From NCBI GenBank assembly GCA_963705375.1, contig OY970071.1, positions 240,001 to 272,000 on the forward strand: a DNA stretch of 32,000 nt, in the 5' to 3' direction. This document shows positions 6,598 through 31,403 of the stretch, piece by piece. The stretch's first letter is position 1; each line of letters begins with the position of its first letter. The translations under genes were made by a program, and so were the position numbers. Below the pieces are notes generated by a model, which saw only the letters and a program-made list of their open reading frames with translations, was not told where the DNA came from and searched no databases. The stretch comes from Candidatus Saccharimonadota bacterium (GTDB lineage Archaea; Micrarchaeota; Micrarchaeia; Micrarchaeales; Micrarchaeaceae).

Positions 6598-6610
6598 CTC
6601 AAAAAGCAGC

Positions 6611-7156
6611 ATGGCCTTCAAGAGCATCATACTGTCAGGGCATCCTGGCTCAGGAAAATCCGCGCTGGCAAACGCATTGTCCAACGAGTACGGCTGGCCA
6701 GTATATTCCATCGGCGGACTGTGGAGGGAGAAGTACAAAAAAGAGCACCCACAGAACGACATAACATTTGAGGACTTCTGGAGCCAGACCAACAAAGAGG
6801 ACAACATAAAGATCAACGAAGAGGCGAAGGTGCTATTCGAGAGAGGAAGCATCATCGGGGAATCAAGGTACACTATGATCTTGGACAGCTCTATCTGCTT
6901 GCTGGTGTTCATTACCGCAGACATGAACACAAGAGTAAAACGCGTGCATGGGCGCCCAGAATACAGGAGGATGTCTAAACAAGAGCTTGCTGAAACGCTG
7001 GAAAGGCGCGGGCAGGACGAACTGGACAGAGGCCACGAGCTCTATGGCGACGATTATGACTACCGGAACCCGCAAAACTACCATCTTGTCATCGACACGA
7101 CCCACATGACTGTAGAGCAGGAAGTCAAGGCTGTGCTCGGCATGATGAGGACATAA
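6611..7156 (+). CDS. P-loop nucleoside monophosphate kinase, archaeal cytidylate-kinase-like
   Basis: Walker A motif SGHPGSGKS immediately after Met-21 of the tracked ORF. Layout resembles archaeal-type CMP kinase (ESR..., FITADMNTRVKRV, YGDDYDYRNPQNYHLVIDT). Start moved to ATG 6611 to fit the promoter. Confidence 0.65.
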   Translation: MAFKSIILSGHPGSGKSALANALSNEYGWPVYSIGGLWREKYKKEHPQNDITFEDFWSQTNKEDNIKINEEAKVLFERGSIIGESRYTMILDSSICLLVFITADMNTRVKRVHGRPEYRRMSKQELAETLERRGQDELDRGHELYGDDYDYRNPQNYHLVIDTTHMTVEQEVKAVLGMMRT

Positions 7157-7286
7157 TCACCGGACCTGCGCACTTACGCGATCTGACATCCAGAAAAGAG
7201 AGAAAGAGGACGAACGCTTCACGCTTGGAACTGCATTCAAACTCGCTTTTTATCGCTATGTGAATACCACTCCTTGTTTACCTGCA

Positions 7287-8156
7287 CTAGTTTCTTGATT
7301 TGTGTGGGATCTTCCTGTTCGAATGTGCCTCTCCCGGCACGCCTGCACGTGGTTCTGCTTGTGCGGCAGAATTCGTATTTTGCTCGGGTGTGCGTTCGGA
7401 TCTGAGGCTTATTTTGCCCGTATGCACCTCTCTCTTAGCGGGTTGTTCTGCGTTAGCTTTCTCGGAGTTCAGCCGTTCCATTATTCTGGGCAGTCCCAGC
7501 GCTTCAGACAATACGACGAACTTGGTCGCCAAGAACTGTTCCAATTCAGCATCCAACGGTTTTGCCAGTTCTGCGGCGTACCCATCATACCGGAGCGAAT
7601 CTTGTATAAACTTTGCGTATTCGCCATCTGTTATCACAAACATCGGCGTATTTTTGTTGCTGTCTGCAAGGTCCCTTATGTTGTCTAACATGGCCTGTTC
7701 CCGTATCCCGTTGATCGTGGATCTTGCGAACATTAGAGCTCTGCCTATCGAAATGCGCTCTTCCCCCTCAGCAGCATCGAATCTGGCCTTCAGCGCCACT
7801 TCCTCTTCATAAGATTCTTTTAGCAGCTCCAGATCCTCTCTGCGTTCATCCCCTACATCTATCGGATGAATTTCTATCTCGTGCCTTCTTTTTAAGTCAG
7901 TCAATAAGGAGAGGAGGTCAAATGTCCAATCCGAGAAGCCCGTCAGCTTTGACAAAGCCTTTATCGTTTGCTCGGAGTAGGTGTCTATCGCGCCAAACAC
8001 CCGGTTCCAAGACGCAGTATTCGGGGCATCCAACAGCACAAAAACCACACCATCTCTATCGGCCATGCCATCGTGAATGCTTTCAAGCATCTCGCCTATC
8101 TCTTTCACACCAGCAAGGTTAGAGCGATTAGCGGGATATAACTGTATCTTTGTCAT
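7287..8156 (-). CDS. Hypothetical protein
   Basis: 289-aa ORF with a TATA box (gtataaatataac on the minus strand) about 30 nt upstream. The C-terminal roughly 60 aa are low-complexity. Confidence 0.55.
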   Translation of the reverse strand: MTKIQLYPANRSNLAGVKEIGEMLESIHDGMADRDGVVFVLLDAPNTASWNRVFGAIDTYSEQTIKALSKLTGFSDWTFDLLSLLTDLKRRHEIEIHPIDVGDERREDLELLKESYEEEVALKARFDAAEGEERISIGRALMFARSTINGIREQAMLDNIRDLADSNKNTPMFVITDGEYAKFIQDSLRYDGYAAELAKPLDAELEQFLATKFVVLSEALGLPRIMERLNSEKANAEQPAKREVHTGKISLRSERTPEQNTNSAAQAEPRAGVPGEAHSNRKIPHKSRN

Positions 8157-8221
8157 AATGTCACATGCAGCCTTTTGTCTGAGTTATATTTATACCTTGT
8201 TTGCCTAAAAGCCGCTTCGAT

Positions 8222-8326
8222 GCCCACTAAGAGGTGCAAGCGCGGAAAAGGCAAAGTCGCGCAAAGTCTGAATTGGCATGTGCCCTTAAATTCCAATTTT
8301 TCTTCTAAAAATCATGATGGGCCTGA
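8222..8326 (+). repeat. Repeat module R1: gene-tail remnant, hairpin, T-rich tract and copy of the tRNA-Val 3' end
   Basis: Colinear with 9471-9569. Shared blocks are gcaagcgcggaaaag, ctgaat, cttaaat, tcttctaaa/tcgtctaag and gatgggc. Hairpin aattgg/ccaatt lies at 8271-8298. The module ends in gatgggcctga, identical to the sequence at the 3' end of tRNA-Val (10803-10813). Confidence 0.7.
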
Positions 8327-8395
8327 TGTTCAAGCGGCCGGAAGCTCGATTTAGAGAGGATACTACATAATATGCTCTGATGCTGTTCGAACAGT

Positions 8396-8465
8396 GCACC
8401 TACAAAACCGCAAAGCCCAACAGACAAGCAGACAAAAAACCAAGAATATAAATATCTCCTAAAAT
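8396..8465 (+). promoter_or_regulatory. Upstream module U1: CA-rich block plus TATA box for the CDS at 8485
   Basis: acaaaaccgcaaagcccaacagacaagcagacaaaaaacc followed by aatataaatatctcctaaaat. Related CA-rich blocks lie at 9678-9720 and 10025-10062. The 14-mer atatctcctaaaat recurs at 26810-26823. Confidence 0.5.
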
Positions 8466-8484
8466 GCAAGCAATATGCGATTAA

Positions 8485-9507
8485 ATGCCATCAGCAGAAA
8501 AAACAGCAATATATAGAACAGAAGCGACTGTGTCGAGTGTAGATGAGCTCACCAGCTTGCCGCTGAGCGTGATTAAAGCTACGATCAAGGAAGATGAAGA
8601 CACCATGCATGACGAGAGAGTATTCGTAAGGCACATGAACGACTACTGCAGATTCGAAGAGGATACCAAAGTAGGTGGATTTGTTGAGGATTCGGCCATC
8701 GTAGGGGATAGGGCATATATCGGCGCAGACTGCCTGGTATTAAATATGGCCCAAGTACGAGACTACGCCAGAATAAGAGGAGGCACTTGGATCTACGAAA
8801 ATGCGATCTTATACGACAATGCCCAGGCCTATTACGGTTCTATGGTTTTCGGGAACTCTTTTATATACGAAAATGCGCTTGTGGCTAGAGCTTGGGTCGC
8901 CGGACAGACCAAACTTCATGGCAACGTCAGAATCTGCGGCATTGCAGTCCTTGGAGACCTGGACATGAGCATAGATTATGAATTCACAGATGAAAAGCAG
9001 ATATCTAGATACGTAATCCGAACTGAAAAACTCAGAAAAGAGCTTGACCATATAGGCAAGGGCAGCATTAAAAAATGGAAAGAAGAGTGCGAACTCGCCG
9101 TGAAACAACATGAGGAAAAAAGGCTCGAACTCCTCAGGGAACAAGATGAGCAGCCTCAGTTAGCAGCATACACTACAGACAAAGTTAGCGCTAAGCTTGA
9201 ATTCTTATGCAGCAAGTTGCCAATGCAAAAAGCCGAGATTTTGAACGAGCCAAGGATCGTGGGTTATTCTTTAAAAAGAATGTCCGATAGGATAGAGTTC
9301 TTGGAACTGCTCGGAGAGCCCCTACCTGCAACTTTGGATAGCCTTCGTGCAATGTTATCCCCTTCAGATAAAAAGTTCCTAGGGCAATACGAAGCCACAG
9401 AACGTGAAACATCTTTGACGGACCTATTACGCGTCGAGGTGAAGGACCTTTCTGTTGAAAAGGCACTTGACCTACTTAAAAGAGCAAGCGCGGAAAAGAC
9501 AGAGTAG
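8485..9507 (+). CDS. Hypothetical protein: N-terminal left-handed beta-helix repeats, coiled-coil segment, C-terminal mTERF-like helical repeats
   Basis: Five consecutive 18-residue turns (VEDSAIVGDRAYIGADCL / VLNMAQVRDYARIRGGTW / IYENAILYDNAQAYYGSM / VFGNSFIYENALVARAWV / AGQTKLHGNVRICGIAVL). The C-terminus AKLEFLCSKLPMQKAEILNEPRIVGYSLKRMSDRIEFLELLGEP resembles mTERF motifs. Confidence 0.6.
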   Translation: MPSAEKTAIYRTEATVSSVDELTSLPLSVIKATIKEDEDTMHDERVFVRHMNDYCRFEEDTKVGGFVEDSAIVGDRAYIGADCLVLNMAQVRDYARIRGGTWIYENAILYDNAQAYYGSMVFGNSFIYENALVARAWVAGQTKLHGNVRICGIAVLGDLDMSIDYEFTDEKQISRYVIRTEKLRKELDHIGKGSIKKWKEECELAVKQHEEKRLELLREQDEQPQLAAYTTDKVSAKLEFLCSKLPMQKAEILNEPRIVGYSLKRMSDRIEFLELLGEPLPATLDSLRAMLSPSDKKFLGQYEATERETSLTDLLRVEVKDLSVEKALDLLKRASAEKTE

Positions 9508-9569
9508 GCAACGCCTGAATCAGCGTGCGCTCTTAAATGCTGATTTGTCGTCTAAGAATCGGGATGGGC
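9471..9569 (+). repeat. Repeat module R2, overlapping the 3' end of CDS 8485..9507
   Basis: Colinear with R1. Hairpin aatcagc/gctgatt at 9518-9545 carries compensatory changes relative to R1. The module ends in gatgggc (9563-9569). Confidence 0.7.
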
Positions 9570-9794
9570 GGGAGGGACACGCCACCTAAACTCCCATGTA
9601 TTTTCTTCGTTAATTGATATTAAAGATGAAGCTCGGCGAACTATGTGTGCAACGAGCACCTCCGCGCCTGTATGCTTGCAAAACCACGAACTTCCACAAA
9701 CAAACTGCCACAAAACGATTTTTGTCCCAAACTCTCAGAAATAGAAGCAAATAAATATTTGGAAAAAAACAATGTGTGTAGTGATATTACGGAG

Positions 9795-10073
9795 ATGTTT
9801 AAAAAAGATAAAGAAGACAAACCCGATGAGCCAACTGAGCTAGCTACGGCGCTTGGCATGAGAAAGGAAAGCGAAATGGAAGATAACGACGCCATGTCAG
9901 AAGCCGCACACGAGTTATGCATCGCATCTAATGAACTTGCACAGACAATCGAACTGGATAGACACATCCCTGAAGGAGACAAAAAGAAAAAAAGATTGAT
10001 GAAGAATGATGTAGCGGAGTCCTTACAAAACCACAAAACTCAGCAAACAAACTGTAGAAAAACTAACCTATAA
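9795..10073 (+). CDS. Hypothetical small acidic/lysine-rich protein; start uncertain
   Basis: The tracked ORF starts at 9645, but its first 50 codons overlap the repeated upstream module and a TATA box (aaataaatattt, about 9749-9762). ATG 9795 fits a leaderless transcript. Confidence 0.35.
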   Translation: MFKKDKEDKPDEPTELATALGMRKESEMEDNDAMSEAAHELCIASNELAQTIELDRHIPEGDKKKKRLMKNDVAESLQNHKTQQTNCRKTNL

Positions 10074-10085
10074 GTATCTGGATAA

Positions 10086-10634
10086 ATGAAGATGACAACA
10101 CGTGATATGATGCCGGAAAATAGAACGATTGGAAATGGATCATCGTTTAAGGAAGTAAATTGCAACTTCGACGATGTGGCTGTATTCGTGGCCGAAACAG
10201 AGTCGAATTATGACGATTCTATGAGCCTTTTGAAGCAGAACGGCCTGGAACCGCTGACGCATGAGTTAGCACTAGCGCTCGCATCCAGATACTCTGAGCT
10301 TGAGGATCCATTGAAAGGCAAAGAGTTCTATTTGGCCGAAAGACGTTTCAATGAATCCGGATGCCATACTTTTGATGATGGAGGCCAAATTAGTCCAGAT
10401 AAAGTAGGTAAGTTTTTTGGTGCGAACGCAGATATGGAGGAAAAGGTCTGGTGTGAGGGAGGAAAGAATCCATTGAGGTTGAGCGTGCTTACGGACGACG
10501 ACGCCAGTTTACAAAATGCGCGTTTCTCACTCTCTGCGAACTTAGCGCCTCTGGACCGTGTGTCTGTAGTGGTCGGATTTAAAATCTATGAAGAGGATGC
10601 GTCAGATATTGAGGACATGTTAAGAACAACATAA
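10086..10634 (+). CDS. Hypothetical protein
   Basis: 182-aa ORF. The TATA-like ctataagtatctgg at 10069-10082 suggests the true start may be Met at 10107/10110. Confidence 0.5.
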   Translation: MKMTTRDMMPENRTIGNGSSFKEVNCNFDDVAVFVAETESNYDDSMSLLKQNGLEPLTHELALALASRYSELEDPLKGKEFYLAERRFNESGCHTFDDGGQISPDKVGKFFGANADMEEKVWCEGGKNPLRLSVLTDDDASLQNARFSLSANLAPLDRVSVVVGFKIYEEDASDIEDMLRTT

Positions 10635-10762
10635 GAGTGAACTCTTTGTCTTCTGCCCAGGTTTGCATGGAGCAATCCTGCAAACTATAGTTGGGAATTA
10701 AAACTCTTTATAGTATAACTTCGCATCGGCCTACGAGCACCTTAAACTTGGTTCAAGTATTT

Positions 10763-10809
10763 GCAACGCGCGTTTCTGAACGCTAATTAGTCTTCTAAAT
10801 CGGATGGGC
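10763..10809 (+). repeat. Repeat module R3: short copy abutting tRNA-Val
   Basis: gcaacgcg...ctgaa...gtcttctaaatcggatgggcc aligns with the ends of R1 and R2 but lacks the hairpin segment. Confidence 0.55.
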
Positions 10810-10876
10810 CTGAGGAGAATCGAACTCCTAATCTTCACCTTGTGAAGGTGACGTCTTGCCATTCGACCACAAGCCC
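10805..10876 (-). tRNA. tRNA-Val(CAC): tRNA-Val (anticodon CAC), no encoded CCA
   Basis: Manual fold of the minus strand: acceptor GGGCTTG/CAGGCCC (7 bp, one G-T pair), anticodon stem TCACC/GGTGA with loop TTCACAA, T arm AGGAG-TTCGATT-CTCCT, discriminator A. Confidence 0.9.
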
Positions 10877-10915
10877 TGCAATAGTTATTAATAGTGGTGT
10901 ATTTATTATAAATTG

Positions 10916-19414: not shown

Positions 19415-19592
19415 ATAGCATCACTTGTGTAGATTCCGTAGTATATTGTGGGCGTTCCTGATATTTATGCGCTACTATTTCTGTCAATTTATACACTAAA
19501 CTTTGCGTTTTTGTAACTACCGACGAGGATACGTTTTGGAGTCGTCAGAGACGTGCACACCAGGCGCAAGGACAGATTCTGCAGTACAAACC

Positions 19593-19601
19593 TTGCTTTT
19601 G
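19593..19601. repeat. Target-site duplication (TTGCTTTTG), left copy
   Basis: An identical 9-mer sits at 20859-20867, immediately outside the inverted repeats. Confidence 0.85.
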
Positions 19602-19617
19602 GATTCTGGGACAAAAG

Positions 19618-20613
19618 TCATCCATAACCGATTCTGAATAAGTTGTGAAGTGTTGCAGTACAACTTATTGCTGTATCGATTCTGTCATTTCTTTTCTGCC
19701 ATATTTTCCACCCAACCATCCGTTTATCTACAGACCAACCATTCTCAGACTTCTCCCTTTTGTAGTACTCTATCAAGTAGGACAGAGGATCCTTCATCAT
19801 CCGTCTGAATATCTTCCTCCATCTAGACGGGCCATTTATTGTTGTGTTGCTCTTTGGGATTATGTACAAAACAGTTTTGTCGTCAAAATACTTCAAAGTT
19901 GATTGGTAACTATAGTACCTGTCTAACCTTGCACTATTGACTGTTATCCCTGTGGCCACCTCTACATTTCTGAGCAGCTTCATTGCATTTTCGAATGCTT
20001 CCTTTTCAGATCGTATACCCGAGCCATAACATATGTACAACCCATTCTTTATGTCGATGAGATTGAACGAATACACGAATTTCCTGTACCCTTCTTTATC
20101 GACTTGTGTACGGTAATGTTTCGTTACTGTTAGTGTGTAACCCGTTCCGTCTCCGCTCACATCTATTTTCTTATCACATTTTCGTTTTATCGTCAGAATA
20201 AACATGTTGTGCAAAACAATTCGCACCAGTTCATCAGAATACATCCTTTCGACAGTTTTGTAACTAATGTCAATGCCACAAAATGCGCCAAAAAGGGACA
20301 TCAGTCCGGCCATTGGTCTGTTGTTTTTGCAGAAAATCGATTTTAGGATAAGCGCAACCACCTTCTGTTGGAGAGACAATTTTGCAGGTCTTCCGAATTT
20401 GGATACCTTCATCTCAATAGAGTCTATTGCTGATTTTGTAAGAATGTTCAACTCTTTCGCGACATATCTTATCCTATTTGCATATTCTTCTTCATATGTT
20501 TTCCAGTCAGTGTGTTTTTCTGCCGTTTTTTCGCCGTAAATCTCAATCAGTTTCTTGAACTCCTTGAAAAATCTTCGGAACTGTCTATTCGTTAACCTTT
20601 TGGTTTTTGCCAT
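19618..20613 (-). CDS. DDE transposase
   Basis: DVSGDGTGY (first Asp region). The C-terminal YYKREKSENGWSVDKR fits the Y-2-R-3-E-6-K signature of IS4-like DDE transposases. The stop codon overlaps IR-L. Confidence 0.8.
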   Translation of the reverse strand: MAKTKRLTNRQFRRFFKEFKKLIEIYGEKTAEKHTDWKTYEEEYANRIRYVAKELNILTKSAIDSIEMKVSKFGRPAKLSLQQKVVALILKSIFCKNNRPMAGLMSLFGAFCGIDISYKTVERMYSDELVRIVLHNMFILTIKRKCDKKIDVSGDGTGYTLTVTKHYRTQVDKEGYRKFVYSFNLIDIKNGLYICYGSGIRSEKEAFENAMKLLRNVEVATGITVNSARLDRYYSYQSTLKYFDDKTVLYIIPKSNTTINGPSRWRKIFRRMMKDPLSYLIEYYKREKSENGWSVDKRMVGWKIWQKRNDRIDTAISCTATLHNLFRIGYG

Positions 20614-20676
20614 GATATTATTATTGAAAGGAAAAGTATTTAAATATATATTAATATATATTATACGGTGTGGTAA

Positions 20677-20838
20677 ATGAGGAAAATTGAAGTAATAAAG
20701 AACAAACTTAAAATCGGAGACGATGTTGTAGTTGTTTTTGAGAAACCTGTAACTCGGTTCGGAACAGGAGCAAAAATCGATTGTCCTAAAGAGTACATTG
20801 GCAAGATGGTTTACGTCATGGTGCGGAAATCAAAGTAA
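20677..20838 (+). CDS. Small transposon-associated protein (DUF2080-like)
   Basis: 53-aa ORF below the track cutoff: MRKIEVIKNKLKIGDDVVVVFEKPVTRFGTGAKIDCPKEYIGKMVYVMVRKSK. The FG.gAkI.cPKeyIGK.VyV pattern recalls archaeal transposon-encoded DUF2080 proteins. Ends 2 nt before IR-R. Confidence 0.55.
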   Translation: MRKIEVIKNKLKIGDDVVVVFEKPVTRFGTGAKIDCPKEYIGKMVYVMVRKSK

Positions 20839-20858
20839 TCGACTTTTGTCCCAGAGTC

Positions 20859-20867
20859 TTGCTTTTG
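20859..20867. repeat. Target-site duplication (TTGCTTTTG), right copy
   Basis: Identical to 19593-19601. Confidence 0.85.
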
Positions 20868-20911
20868 AAAAAGGATAAATACTTGCGAACTGTAAGGTTT
20901 GCCGTGAGAGT

Positions 20912-21400
20912 ATGGTGTATAAACAGCCGACCAAAGAGCAAGTGCAGAAAGCAGAGCATGAGCAGCACTGGCAAGAATGGGAGCAAGAGCAGAACGATAA
21001 ACAGCAGCAAAAGCACATAGAGGATGCTGCTTATTTCGCGAGTATTGGAGCCTTTCCAAATGCCGCATACTGTGCGGCGGCTGCCGGGCTGGCCAATTTT
21101 AAGGTGGCGTACGAATGGGCTGCAGATAAGGAAGACGCAGCTGGAAATCACTGGGATGCTGTAAAAATACGCACACGGGACGCAGGTTGGACGTTAGCAG
21201 CGGCGTACAAGAAGAGCTGGGAGTCTGCAGAGGCAATGGCAGTAAAGAAAGATAGTGAGGGAAAGCCTGATGAGGCGCAGAAGCGGCGCGATATCGCAGA
21301 AGAGATGCGCAAGAAAGCCGCACAGGAATTCGCCGCATTCAAGGAGCTGATGCGGGACGCTGACGAAAGTGCACACCAAGATGAGGGCGCTGCACCGTGA
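20912..21400 (+). CDS. Hypothetical Gln/Glu/Ala-rich protein
   Basis: 162-aa ORF with TATA ggataaatactt about 30 nt upstream. Confidence 0.5.
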   Translation: MVYKQPTKEQVQKAEHEQHWQEWEQEQNDKQQQKHIEDAAYFASIGAFPNAAYCAAAAGLANFKVAYEWAADKEDAAGNHWDAVKIRTRDAGWTLAAAYKKSWESAEAMAVKKDSEGKPDEAQKRRDIAEEMRKKAAQEFAAFKELMRDADESAHQDEGAAP

Positions 21401-25986: not shown

Positions 25987-26041
25987 AGACGCACTCTAAA
26001 CCTTTAAATATTCCTGTCTCTATGATTTTATTACAGATGCT

Positions 26042-26722
26042 ATGCAAGATCCTAAGATCCAGTCGCCAGAAGTGCCAGGCGCTCTTGATACAGGCAGTAA
26101 TGAAACAGGCGAAACAGTTGTCAGCGAATCAATACTGCTTCAAAAAGAAGCAGTAGAAAAAGGGAGTGCCAATGAGACTACTGGGTCTGTTGTGGTAATG
26201 CCTTCTTTGCTGGAACAAGCAAGGAATAAAGTTGTACAAGAAGGGCTTAAAACAGCAGTAAAAACAACGCAAGAAATTGTTGACATGTTAAGGGCTCATA
26301 TTGGTAAGCATGTTGAAGTCAAAACGCATGAAATATGCAATGAGGGAATAGACTATGGTCATCCAATTGAGAGAGACATAACATATAAGGGCACACTGAA
26401 AGATGTGGATCCCTTACTAAAAAACATAACTATGGAGAATTATACTTTAGAGGATAGTGTGTATGAGGGTTTGGTAATGGATCCGAAAAAGAAACCGGCA
26501 AGCATTGAAGGATATCTTGACCACACTCAGAAAGGACAGATCGCCTTCGAAGCAGGATATCAAAGGATACGTTCTATATCCTCTGAAGATAAAGAAATAT
26601 ACCAAGAGAAAGACATGCCGCGATCCGAAAAAGAAGATGAATGGGACGCAAGATCCGCAGCTGCAATGGCAGAGCTAGAAAAAGAATTTGAACATTGGAA
26701 GGAGACTGCTGCTGAAAAATAA
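26042..26722 (+). CDS. Hypothetical protein
   Basis: 226-aa ORF with TATA cctttaaatattcc about 30 nt upstream. AT-rich compared with the housekeeping genes. Confidence 0.5.
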   Translation: MQDPKIQSPEVPGALDTGSNETGETVVSESILLQKEAVEKGSANETTGSVVVMPSLLEQARNKVVQEGLKTAVKTTQEIVDMLRAHIGKHVEVKTHEICNEGIDYGHPIERDITYKGTLKDVDPLLKNITMENYTLEDSVYEGLVMDPKKKPASIEGYLDHTQKGQIAFEAGYQRIRSISSEDKEIYQEKDMPRSEKEDEWDARSAAAMAELEKEFEHWKETAAEK

Positions 26723-26778
26723 CTCTTATGTACGAAGCTACGTCCACGCTTTCAGGATGAGTACAAAATTGCAATCTT

Positions 26779-26827
26779 GCTAAAACAAACTACCAAAATA
26801 AAGGCATACATATCTCCTAAAATAGCA
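26779..26827 (+). promoter_or_regulatory. Fourth copy of the upstream/TATA module (U4) with no convincing downstream CDS
   Basis: gctaaaacaaactaccaaaataaaggcatacatatctcctaaaatagca shares aaacaaact with U2/U3 and the 14-mer atatctcctaaaat with U1. The downstream ATG CCG TCC (compare ATG CCA TCA at 8485) stops after 7 codons. Confidence 0.45.
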
Positions 26828-27307
26828 TTGTGGCGTGCAAATTGAAATATGACAAACGGCATTTAATGCCGTCCAGGCTTTCGGAATAGAAAGAGATGCT
26901 GTGATTCAAGAGCTTCTGGATAAAGAGATCATGTCCAAAGTCGGCGCCGAAAAAGCAGTTGCAAATCGCAATATACCAATTTGGAAGCAAGATCAGATAG
27001 CGGAGAGTTTGAGATAGCATATTTGAAAGAAAGGTGTTTTACCTATCAGAGGATGCACCAACCCTTGGGGGGTTGCACCTTTCGAGGAATTCCATATGTT
27101 GCTTATTTCGCAATATGCCCTACGGCTTGCCGTGGGGTTATTTACAATGCCACAAAAAAGCAAACATCCAAATGATGCAGAAAGAACTGCTGCGGAGGCT
27201 AAGCGTCTAGGCGCTGTGGGAAGAGTGCTCCTCGATAATAACATGACAATAGATGTCTCAACCACTTAAATGAAGGGCGGGCTAGCAATCCTGTATTCGC
27301 TGCTTCT

Positions 27308-30849: not shown

Positions 30850-31302
30850 TCACGCCGCGAGCGTCATCTGACAGGATACGTCTTGCCTCCTGATGTAATT
30901 CTGTACCGTCTTCTCGTCGCGAGGCCCAACACTTCCGTTGCTGTATCCTGCACTCCAGAAGTGACCTTGCAGATACCGCAGCCTATGGTTAGGTATTTCC
31001 TTGAAAACCACATACGACGAATATCCCTTCAGCAGTTGTACTGCAGTTGCAATCGACATTGTATTTGGAATGCCTGTTTCGAGATGTATGTGTGCGTAAT
31101 CATCGCCAAATGACATTTCCTTTATTGAGATCTTGTACCTTTCTGCAACGTTGTAGAGGGCACCACGTATTGCCGCCACGGTTTTCGGGTTCTTGAACAT
31201 CTTGTATCGGTACTTCGTAACGAAGACAAGGTGCTGGAAGTTGTATTGATGACCGACGCTGTCGGCAGATGGTTCTTTATTTGCAGCGGTTCCACTATTC
31301 AT
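30850..31302 (-). CDS. tnpA: IS200/IS605 family Y1 (HUH) transposase TnpA
   Basis: FQHLVFVTKYRYKMF, HUH motif YAHIHLE, and a C-terminal SAGYS...YIRRQ region carrying the catalytic Tyr. ATG 31302 is preferred over the TTG at 31332. Confidence 0.85.
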   Translation of the reverse strand: MNSGTAANKEPSADSVGHQYNFQHLVFVTKYRYKMFKNPKTVAAIRGALYNVAERYKISIKEMSFGDDYAHIHLETGIPNTMSIATAVQLLKGYSSYVVFKEIPNHRLRYLQGHFWSAGYSNGSVGPRDEKTVQNYIRRQDVSCQMTLAA

Positions 31303-31403
31303 GTTATCACGTATCGGCAGTTTGCGGCGCAAATTTTTCCGTGCCGCGGCTGCCTTACGCAGAAATCTACAGGAAAAGTATTTCAGTAACTGTGCAATTC
31401 ATT

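Follow-up and report, generated by a model that had tools for sequence, protein, structure and literature searches.

The region described here lies in a window of 32 kb, which is the whole stretch of DNA that was analysed (contig OY970071.1 of assembly GCA_963705375.1, from a tiny symbiotic archaeon placed in the Micrarchaeota by its GTDB lineage), and all unprefixed coordinates refer to this window. The 2.6-kb stretch from a gene of 289 amino acids (aa) to the tRNA-Val(CAC) gene is a small, old variable islet with three direct copies of a junction, named here modules R1, R2 and R3. The 289-aa gene (7287..8156, minus strand) forms the left border and belongs to no family, with no match in Pfam or PDB. 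The tRNA-Val(CAC) gene (10805..10876, minus strand) was identified with ARAGORN and with the Rfam tRNA model (67.6 bits), and its 3′ end, at 10805, points into the repeat region. Between these borders the plus strand encodes P340 (8485..9507), a small protein of 92 aa (9795..10073) and P182 (10086..10634). The GC content of the region is 0.44, with 0.43–0.46 inside the islet, and that of the flanks is 0.49–0.52. Related loci, numbered with the prefix L, were gathered via the adenosyltransferase gene beside the tRNA, via the small protein and by exact-protein look-ups, and they represent five lineages.

Module R1 (8207..8328, plus strand) extends from a remnant of a P340-like C-terminus to an 11-nucleotide (nt) core, TGGGCCTGAtG, at 8318–8328. 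The remnant, which ends in GASAEKAKSRKV and a stop codon, is in frame at 8209–8271 after a TAA at 8206–8208, and it is thus the orphaned tail behind a stop described in an earlier reading of the sequence alone (the sequence-only reading). It is followed by CTGAAT, a hairpin (8271–8276/8293–8298), CTTAAAT, a run of five T, TCTAA, AATCATGA and the core. Module R2 (9455..9575, plus strand) begins in the true 3′ end of P340 (…KRASAEKTE and stop), the ASAEK tail being the genuine C-terminus of the coding sequence 8485–9507, as had been proposed. It continues with CTGAAT, a hairpin (9518–9524/9539–9545), CTTAAAT, TCTAAG, AATCGGGA and the core TGGGCggGAGG at 9565–9575. Module R3 (10767..10815, plus strand) is a shortened left arm (CTGAA..TAATTAGTCTTCTAAATCGGA) that lacks the hairpin and is joined to the tRNA 3′ end, 130 nt beyond P182; it is the actual tRNA junction, as the sequence-only reading had it. 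A remnant of the P340 tail was looked for upstream of R3 and none was found.

Formal alignment placed the similarity of R1 and R2 far above that of shuffled sequences. The local alignment of 8207–8322 with 9455–9569 scored 82, against 18.9 ± 2.2 for the shuffles (z = 28), and an nhmmer profile derived solely from these two modules recovered R3 (10767–10815) with E = 4e-4, as its sole other match in the window; therefore, the modules are real and related. The next-best match of this profile had E = 0.32, in a search space of 64 kb, and the alignments of R3 with R1 and with R2 gave z of about 6.4 each. R1 and R2 are 73–76% identical across about 115 bp. A repeat finder reported the pair as two stretches, one of 75 nt with 72% and one of 35 nt with 80% identity, at an offset of 1247/1248, in agreement with the colinearity over about 100 bp seen earlier by inspection. 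In addition, a block of 15 nt, GCAAGCGCGGAAAAG, shows no change, not even in R1, where it is non-coding. The sequences thus indicate homology of R1, R2 and R3, which are direct repeats of a single junction. Within the 32-kb window they are not a generic terminator, since the R1 and R2 profile matches nothing there besides R3. The string gatgggc lies at 8316, 9563 and 10803. Successive copies are 1247 and 1240 bp apart, and the units are thus of near-equal length despite their unrelated gene contents.

All copies of the module, including a fourth one at the related locus L002, were aligned on the T of TGGG. The core common to them corresponds to the final 11 nt of tRNA-Val (10805–10815), which read TGGGCCTGAGG on the plus strand. 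The cores of R1 and R2 each match the tRNA at 9/11 positions and that of R3, being the tRNA itself, at 11/11; the L002 core reads TGGGtCTGgGG. The majority consensus of the three non-tRNA cores (R1, R2 and L002) is exactly the tRNA sequence, which upholds the earlier observation that the three modules end in the tRNA-Val 3′ end. Border repeats of the 3′ part of the tRNA are present at the islet, and they are short, with 11 nt. As a bare count, a 14-mer core with up to three mismatches is not enriched in the window, with 4 occurrences against 2.35 expected.

To the left of the core, the arm end (A)AATCNGGA is common to the three modules of the window and to the L002 copy. To the right, R1 passes into TTCAAGCGGCCGGAAGCTCGATTTA (8329..8353, plus strand), R2 into the unique GGGACACGCC and R3 into the body of the tRNA, and these sequences are mutually unrelated. 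A common left arm, a common core and differing right arms are the anatomy of att-type recombination junctions. The right flank of R1 is 81–84% identical to the sequence right of the L002 module (blastn E = 7e-9); because it is orthologous to L002 intergenic DNA, it represents ancestral chromosomal DNA or DNA of an older element. The tRNA junctions of L002, L010, L003 and L004 are virgin, that is, without the AATCNGGA arm, and therefore the arm adjacent to the tRNA in the window arrived with the P182 unit on its left. The sequence-only reading also had the colinearity of R1 and R2 continuing downstream, which is true of a CA-rich block described below and fails for gaagctcg and gcacct, whose shared order does not exceed chance (p about 0.26).

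Other identities of these repeats were considered and rejected. The motif ATGATGG..CTGA of R1 could suggest a C/D-box small RNA, but the boxes are not kept in R2 or L002, are wrongly spaced and match nothing in Rfam. The R1 right flank is not a pseudo-tRNA, since its similarity to the tRNA, judged by eye, stops at 11 nt and no tRNA model matches it. The pair R1/R2 is also not the template and variable repeats of a diversity-generating retroelement, given that its substitutions are not adenine-specific and that no reverse transcriptase is encoded in the window.

The hairpin arms are AATTGG/CCAATT in R1 and AATCAGC/GCTGATT in R2, so that a stem of 6–7 bp, with a loop of 14–17 nt, survives two adjacent double-sided changes, on either strand. 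In neutral simulations at 27% divergence, all six pairs were kept in 6.4% of the trials, and kept together with at least two double changes in about 0.2%. The latter figure favours the earlier claim that the compensatory changes reveal selection on the structure; the lack of a hairpin in R3 and a folding stability that is not unusual (z about -1) speak against it. A constraint on the hairpin thus has moderate support, drawn from two sequences only that were chosen post hoc. A covariance scan of 8100–10900 with Rfam matched only the tRNA itself at E ≤ 1, and a search with the intrinsic-terminator pattern found no terminator-like sites.

The CA-rich block occurs three times in the window (8399, 9675 and 10022), the third occurrence having been noted correctly by the sequence-only reading. 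On the plus strand, block P1 with its TATA box (aatataaatat) and the 5′ leader of P340 spans 8395..8469; block P2 (9672..9716) has no TATA box directly after it; and block P3 with its TATA box (cctataagtat), the P182 promoter, spans 10019..10090. P2 and P3 are 82% identical and flank the segment of the small gene. Thus P340 and P182 each have their own CA block and TATA box, 25–35 nt ahead of the start codon. The same block, TATA box and leader also precede the homologues of P340 in L008, L033 and L034 (nhmmer E = 4e-11; alignment z 10–22). Because these loci are free of tRNA, the CA block with its TATA box is the promoter of the P340 family and not part of an att site. P182 uses a copy of this P340-family element, the promoter function being presumed for both genes. 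In addition, a weak match to the hidden Markov model (HMM) of the CA block lies at 26762–26823 (E = 0.37).

The comparison of relatives showed that the 5′ side of the tRNA is conserved in all five lineages, with tRNA-Val, adenosyltransferase, ScpB and ScpA in order, and that synteny is lost at its 3′ end. On the 3′ side, lineage B (L002, L012–14) presents an XPD helicase gene, a hairpin, a module copy, the small gene and the tRNA. Lineage C (L009–11) presents XPD, whose stop codon overlaps atccGGGCCTAA, a spacer of 40 nt with GCACCT, the small gene and the tRNA; in L009 this spacer also contains an rve-type insertion sequence. In lineage D (L004/5) a gene for a 2-thiouracil desulfurase lies directly at the tRNA. 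L003 is a close relative of L002 and L010, yet it has a wholly different flank, of unrelated sequence. The fourth module copy, in L002 (caaatccggaTGGGTCTGGGG), consists of a left-arm remnant of 25 nt that abuts the XPD stop codon, and the module HMM detects it with E = 0.045. On the other side of the islet, the cytidylate-kinase-like gene of the window (6610–7171) is the left anchor to lineage C. From this anchor to the small gene, lineage C holds an I42-inhibitor gene, a 151-aa gene and XPD, and the window holds the 289-aa gene, R1, P340 and R2.

P340 and P182 are missing from L002, L003, L004/5 and L009–14, and the tRNA is intact in all of these. The window is the only sequence with either gene at this locus, so the cassette content is not identical in all relatives, and the presence/absence variation looked for on the basis of the sequence-only reading is in fact found. 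Adenosyltransferase identity is 89–91% between lineages B and C and 72–74% between either of them and the window. The small gene and its promoter are 80–91% identical in DNA to L002, and the core genes 74–82%; since the two match, the small gene descended vertically and was present before the window lineage separated from B and C, and a recent horizontal transfer of its region, which is 80–81% identical to L002, was rejected on the same ground. R1 and R2 differ at 27% of sites, and the divergence of DNA between lineages is 18–26%. Since these values are similar, and since L002 already has a module copy and the R1 right flank, the repeats are ancient. P182 lies between the small gene and the tRNA. 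On its left, the homology with B and C stops at gtcctta, directly abutting CA block P3, and on its right stands the junction of left arm and core.

Some further features of the related loci deserve mention. The tRNA-Val of L003 (197–268) is identical to that of the window at 72/72 positions; the neighbouring proteins of L003 are about 90% like those of L002/L010 and only 74% like those of the window. The tRNA-Val genes of L002/L010 differ from the window/L003 allele at 5–6 positions, and the identity between L003 and the window may reflect tRNA allele replacement. The tRNA-Val of lineage C (L010 4276–4347) is mismatched at C6.A67 of the acceptor stem, and a 3′ end of the L004 type would restore full pairing with its 5′ strand; this pattern suggests that the 3′ end of the L010 tRNA-Val may have been exchanged. 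In L009 (3000–3995) an rve-family insertion sequence, with a transposase of 309 aa on the minus strand, occupies the small-gene promoter and is flanked by duplicated acctaaaatcagaaat; it is absent from the sister contigs L010 and L011. The Logan contigs of run ERR11594402 break at 9738–9764, in the small-gene promoter, where a 27-mer is shared with other lineages, and at 10671, 37 nt after P182. These breaks may represent branching of the assembly graph caused by co-occurring relatives or variants.

P340 comprises a YdcK-like beta-solenoid (~45–165), a coiled coil (170–222) and a helical C-terminus, and the last region has a weak match to mTERF (Pfam E 8e-7, above the gathering score). This mix of a YdcK-like beta-solenoid, a coiled coil of ~50 residues and an mTERF-like region is unusual for an archaeon. 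Its structure model, with a predicted local distance difference test (pLDDT) score of 70, gave no significant fold match in PDB. The closest homologue, P0003/P0157, has 49% identity over the N-terminal two-thirds and was found in lineage-C-associated samples between rotamase and EamA genes, with no tRNA nearby. The P340 homologues of lineage C lack the C-terminal part, and the R module was not found at the homologue loci L033–L036. A weak echo, CTGAAT...CCTTAAA, lies 3′ of the L008/L033 homologue. The contig L008 (1–5327) is a near-perfect palindrome with arms 97–100% complementary and a centre at about 2437; a divergent paralogue pair on it was rejected, since the whole-contig palindrome is most likely a fold-back assembly artefact.

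The small gene has a conserved promoter (9736–9794) and orthologues in three lineages, located beside tRNA-Val in L002/L012–14 and L009–11. Relative to L002/L010, the window has a deletion of 2 nt near the 3′ end of the gene (9975–10073), which shifts the frame and explains why the protein has 92 aa instead of 70–74 aa and runs through CA block P3 to 10073. In L015 (780–1263) a truncated small gene of 47 aa has other DNA on both sides, including a Ni_hydr_CYTB neighbour, and represents either a chimeric contig or a second copy that was rearranged. P182 is a genuine orphan, with no family, no homologue and an unusable AlphaFold model (pLDDT 35). Searches of the cargo genes with PADLOC, NCBIfam, PHROGs and PDB sequences gave only the generic beta-solenoid for P340. 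The statement of the sequence-only reading that all enclosed genes are orphans was therefore wrong for two of the three, P340 and the small gene, and correct only for P182. The gene contents of units 1 and 2 are unrelated; hidden paralogy between the units was sought with blastn and tblastx and rejected.

Elsewhere the window encodes TFIIB, Spt5 and L11. Its only mobile-element gene is an open reading frame (ORF) for an IS200/IS605-type Y1 transposase (30850–31332, minus strand; Pfam Y1_Tnp, E 4e-26), 20 kb from the islet and unrelated to it. Further patches of low GC (0.38–0.40) are located at 19500–21000 and 26000–27000, with ORFs at 19618–20613 (minus strand) and 26042–26722 (plus strand) that have no Pfam family. 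These patches may be other variable islets.

We interpret the junctions, with somewhat less than even confidence, as att-type scars of recombination at the core of the tRNA-Val 3′ end, later eroded by deletion and homologous exchange, the recombinase having acted in trans or been lost. The left arm of each junction is DNA of the kind found 3′ of a P340-type gene (CTGAAT, hairpin, CTTAAAT, T-rich tract, TCTAA, AATCNGGA), and it is followed by the 11-nt core and an unrelated right side. Related small units, each with a CA-block/TATA promoter, one gene and a left arm, would have been joined to core-bearing targets by this recombinase, the tRNA 3′-end core being att-like. Deletions and homologous exchange between CA blocks and between modules would then have eroded and rearranged the array, and one unit may have shrunk to the 110-bp remnant R1. 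The sequences show how the repeats are built, that they break off abruptly at the core, that relatives vary and that a promoter is shared; from there we infer both the participation of a site-specific recombinase and this order of events.

Successive insertion at the tRNA, with the order module, gene, module, gene(s), module and tRNA, had been proposed by the sequence-only reading. Its homologous modules, the break at the core, the lower GC and the variation in relatives stand. The scheme has to be corrected because the small gene is ancestral, P340 is not at the tRNA, P182 has no core on its left, the events are ancient and the CA block is a promoter.

Several of these points also weigh against recombination scars in general, together with others. 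A comparison of about 39 ORFs in the window with Pfam revealed no integrase, as had also been stated earlier. Searches of viral contigs with the proteins and four DNA motifs gave chance seeds only: no viral or plasmid-like contig carries the core, the right arm or the genes, and a free or differently integrated form with a contiguous attP was not found there. The tRNA repeat has only 11 nt, compared with about 44 bp in documented archaeal cases (PMC9897764), and the units are small, with about 1.2 kb and one or two genes. In lineage C, the loci of the P340 homologues have neither a tRNA nor the module. Within unit 2 the small gene is vertically inherited and is not a cassette, and no copy of the core exists left of P182. 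Since the R1 right flank is orthologous to L002, P340 is embedded in an older arrangement (core, TTCAAGCGG..., small gene, tRNA) and does not stand at the tRNA. There is also no sign of current mobility, since the divergence of R1 and R2 is about that of the lineages.

As the main rival, the same locus could have arisen by a single illegitimate tandem duplication of a segment without any site-specific recombinase, which we consider rather unlikely. The duplicated segment would comprise the right flank, the CA promoter, a P340-like gene, its 3′ arm and 11 nt of the tRNA end, with the breakpoint 11 nt inside the tRNA; unequal crossing-over would amplify it, the gene contents would be lost or replaced, and recombination between CA blocks would delete P340 in the L002/L010 lineages. 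The near-equal unit spacings of 1247 and 1240 bp, the P340-paralogue remnant in R1, an age of the repeats about equal to that of the lineages and the lack of an integrase in the window all speak for such a history, and the L002 layout can be derived from that of the window by recombination of CA P1 with CA P2. However, the two units have no detectable coding similarity, and what follows the core on the right is unrelated in R1 and R2, whereas tandem copies should start alike; acquisition also accounts better for an islet that is poorer in GC than its flanks and for the lack of P340 and P182 in every relative. A functional cis element, of quite low probability in our view, would explain the modules as a 3′ untranslated region, terminator or processing signal of P340-type genes with a selected hairpin, the CA block as a regulatory promoter and the tRNA match as secondary, the copies persisting because they regulate co-expressed genes. 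It draws on the hairpin kept through two double-sided changes, on the intact GCAAGCGCGGAAAAG in R1, on the CA block and TATA box conserved ahead of P340 homologues in other genomes and on the weak echo after the L008/L033 homologue. But no gene precedes R1, R3 has no hairpin and stands well past P182, the hairpin is of ordinary stability with no terminator-like or Rfam match, and both the end of similarity at the 11-nt tRNA core and the arm abutting the tRNA are left unexplained.

An integrase-less array of cassettes served in trans, like an integron, a cluster of attC sites lacking integron-integrases (CALIN) or Xer/dif modules, would make the modules themselves the recombination sites. The layout of gene plus 3′ module, the hairpin kept in diverged sequence and the lack of an integrase in cis are in line with such an array, and integrons and CALINs do occur in Archaea (PMC9668308). 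The archaeal integron survey, however, makes no mention of Micrarchaeota. No R″/R′ box pair of attC (RYYYAAC/GTTRRRY) exists in 8150–10850, where only one GTTRRRY and one RYYYAAC were found, unpaired and outside the modules. By eye only, nothing convincing as a dif-like 11-6-11 palindrome (28 bp) was seen among the inverted repeats. The stem has just 6–7 bp with a loop of 14–17 nt, each unit has its own promoter and there are only two or three ancient units, so that this explanation is highly improbable. Slightly less improbable, and still a long shot, is a miniature integrase-in-trans cassette system of Micrarchaeota (DPANN), in which units of ~1 kb, each with a family-specific CA-rich promoter, a single gene and, 3′ of it, a hairpin arm whose end mimics that of tRNA-Val, would be taken up and reshuffled wherever a core AAATCNGGATGGGCCTGAGG of 11–20 nt is present, the tRNA gene serving as just one docking site among several. 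A chance resemblance between AT-rich intergenic sequences could appeal to the bare count of the 14-mer core, which is not enriched (4 against 2.35), but it is refuted by the alignment of R1 with R2, by a profile whose only other match is the tRNA junction and by the L002 copy at an orthologous position, and its probability is negligible.

Integrated elements bordered by partial tRNA copies are widespread in archaeal genomes, with documented repeats of 44 bp and elements of 9–23 kb (PMC9897764). As in the archaeal tRNA-flanked islands and proviruses, for example PYG1 of Pyrococcus yayanosii, and in tandem or successive integrations at a single tRNA, the islet has direct repeats with the tRNA 3′ end, one in the intact tRNA and the others distal; lower-GC, foreign and lineage-specific genes between the repeats; and a break of synteny at the tRNA 3′ end. 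Decay of such islands also leaves relics without an integrase. The islet differs from them in its repeat of 11 nt instead of about 44 bp and in its units of 0.8–1.2 kb instead of 9–23 kb (PMC9897764). It also has no integrase or integrase fragment, one distal copy stands ahead of an ancestral gene, and most of the homology falls not in the tRNA but in the DNA 3′ of the cargo gene. With integron arrays and CALINs, including the archaeal ones (PMC9668308), it shares single-gene units, 3′ sites that are diverged yet structurally similar and the possible lack of an integrase. Unlike them, it has no attC R″/R′ boxes, a short stem, individual promoters and a tRNA-end anchor in place of attI. With tandem duplication followed by decay it has in common an R1 made of the C-terminal P340-paralogue remnant plus the same 3′ flank, repeated promoter blocks and near-equal units, whereas the absence of coding similarity between units and the abrupt divergence of the copies past the tRNA-like core set it apart.

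Overall, the locus looks like a very small, integrase-less and very old case of a known kind of genome scar rather than an active new cassette system, and no new mechanism would follow from reading the junctions as att-type scars, even if that reading is true. Concrete handles for searches are offered by the core AAATCNGGATGGGCCTGAGG and by the CA-block promoter. If the junctions are att-type scars, streamlined DPANN genomes of 1 Mb would also receive foreign genes at a tRNA 3′ end, and such scars would outlive their recombinase and persist over species-level divergence. Their recognition would then aid the annotation of orphan islets in DPANN genomes and the finding of the still-unknown mobile elements of these archaea.

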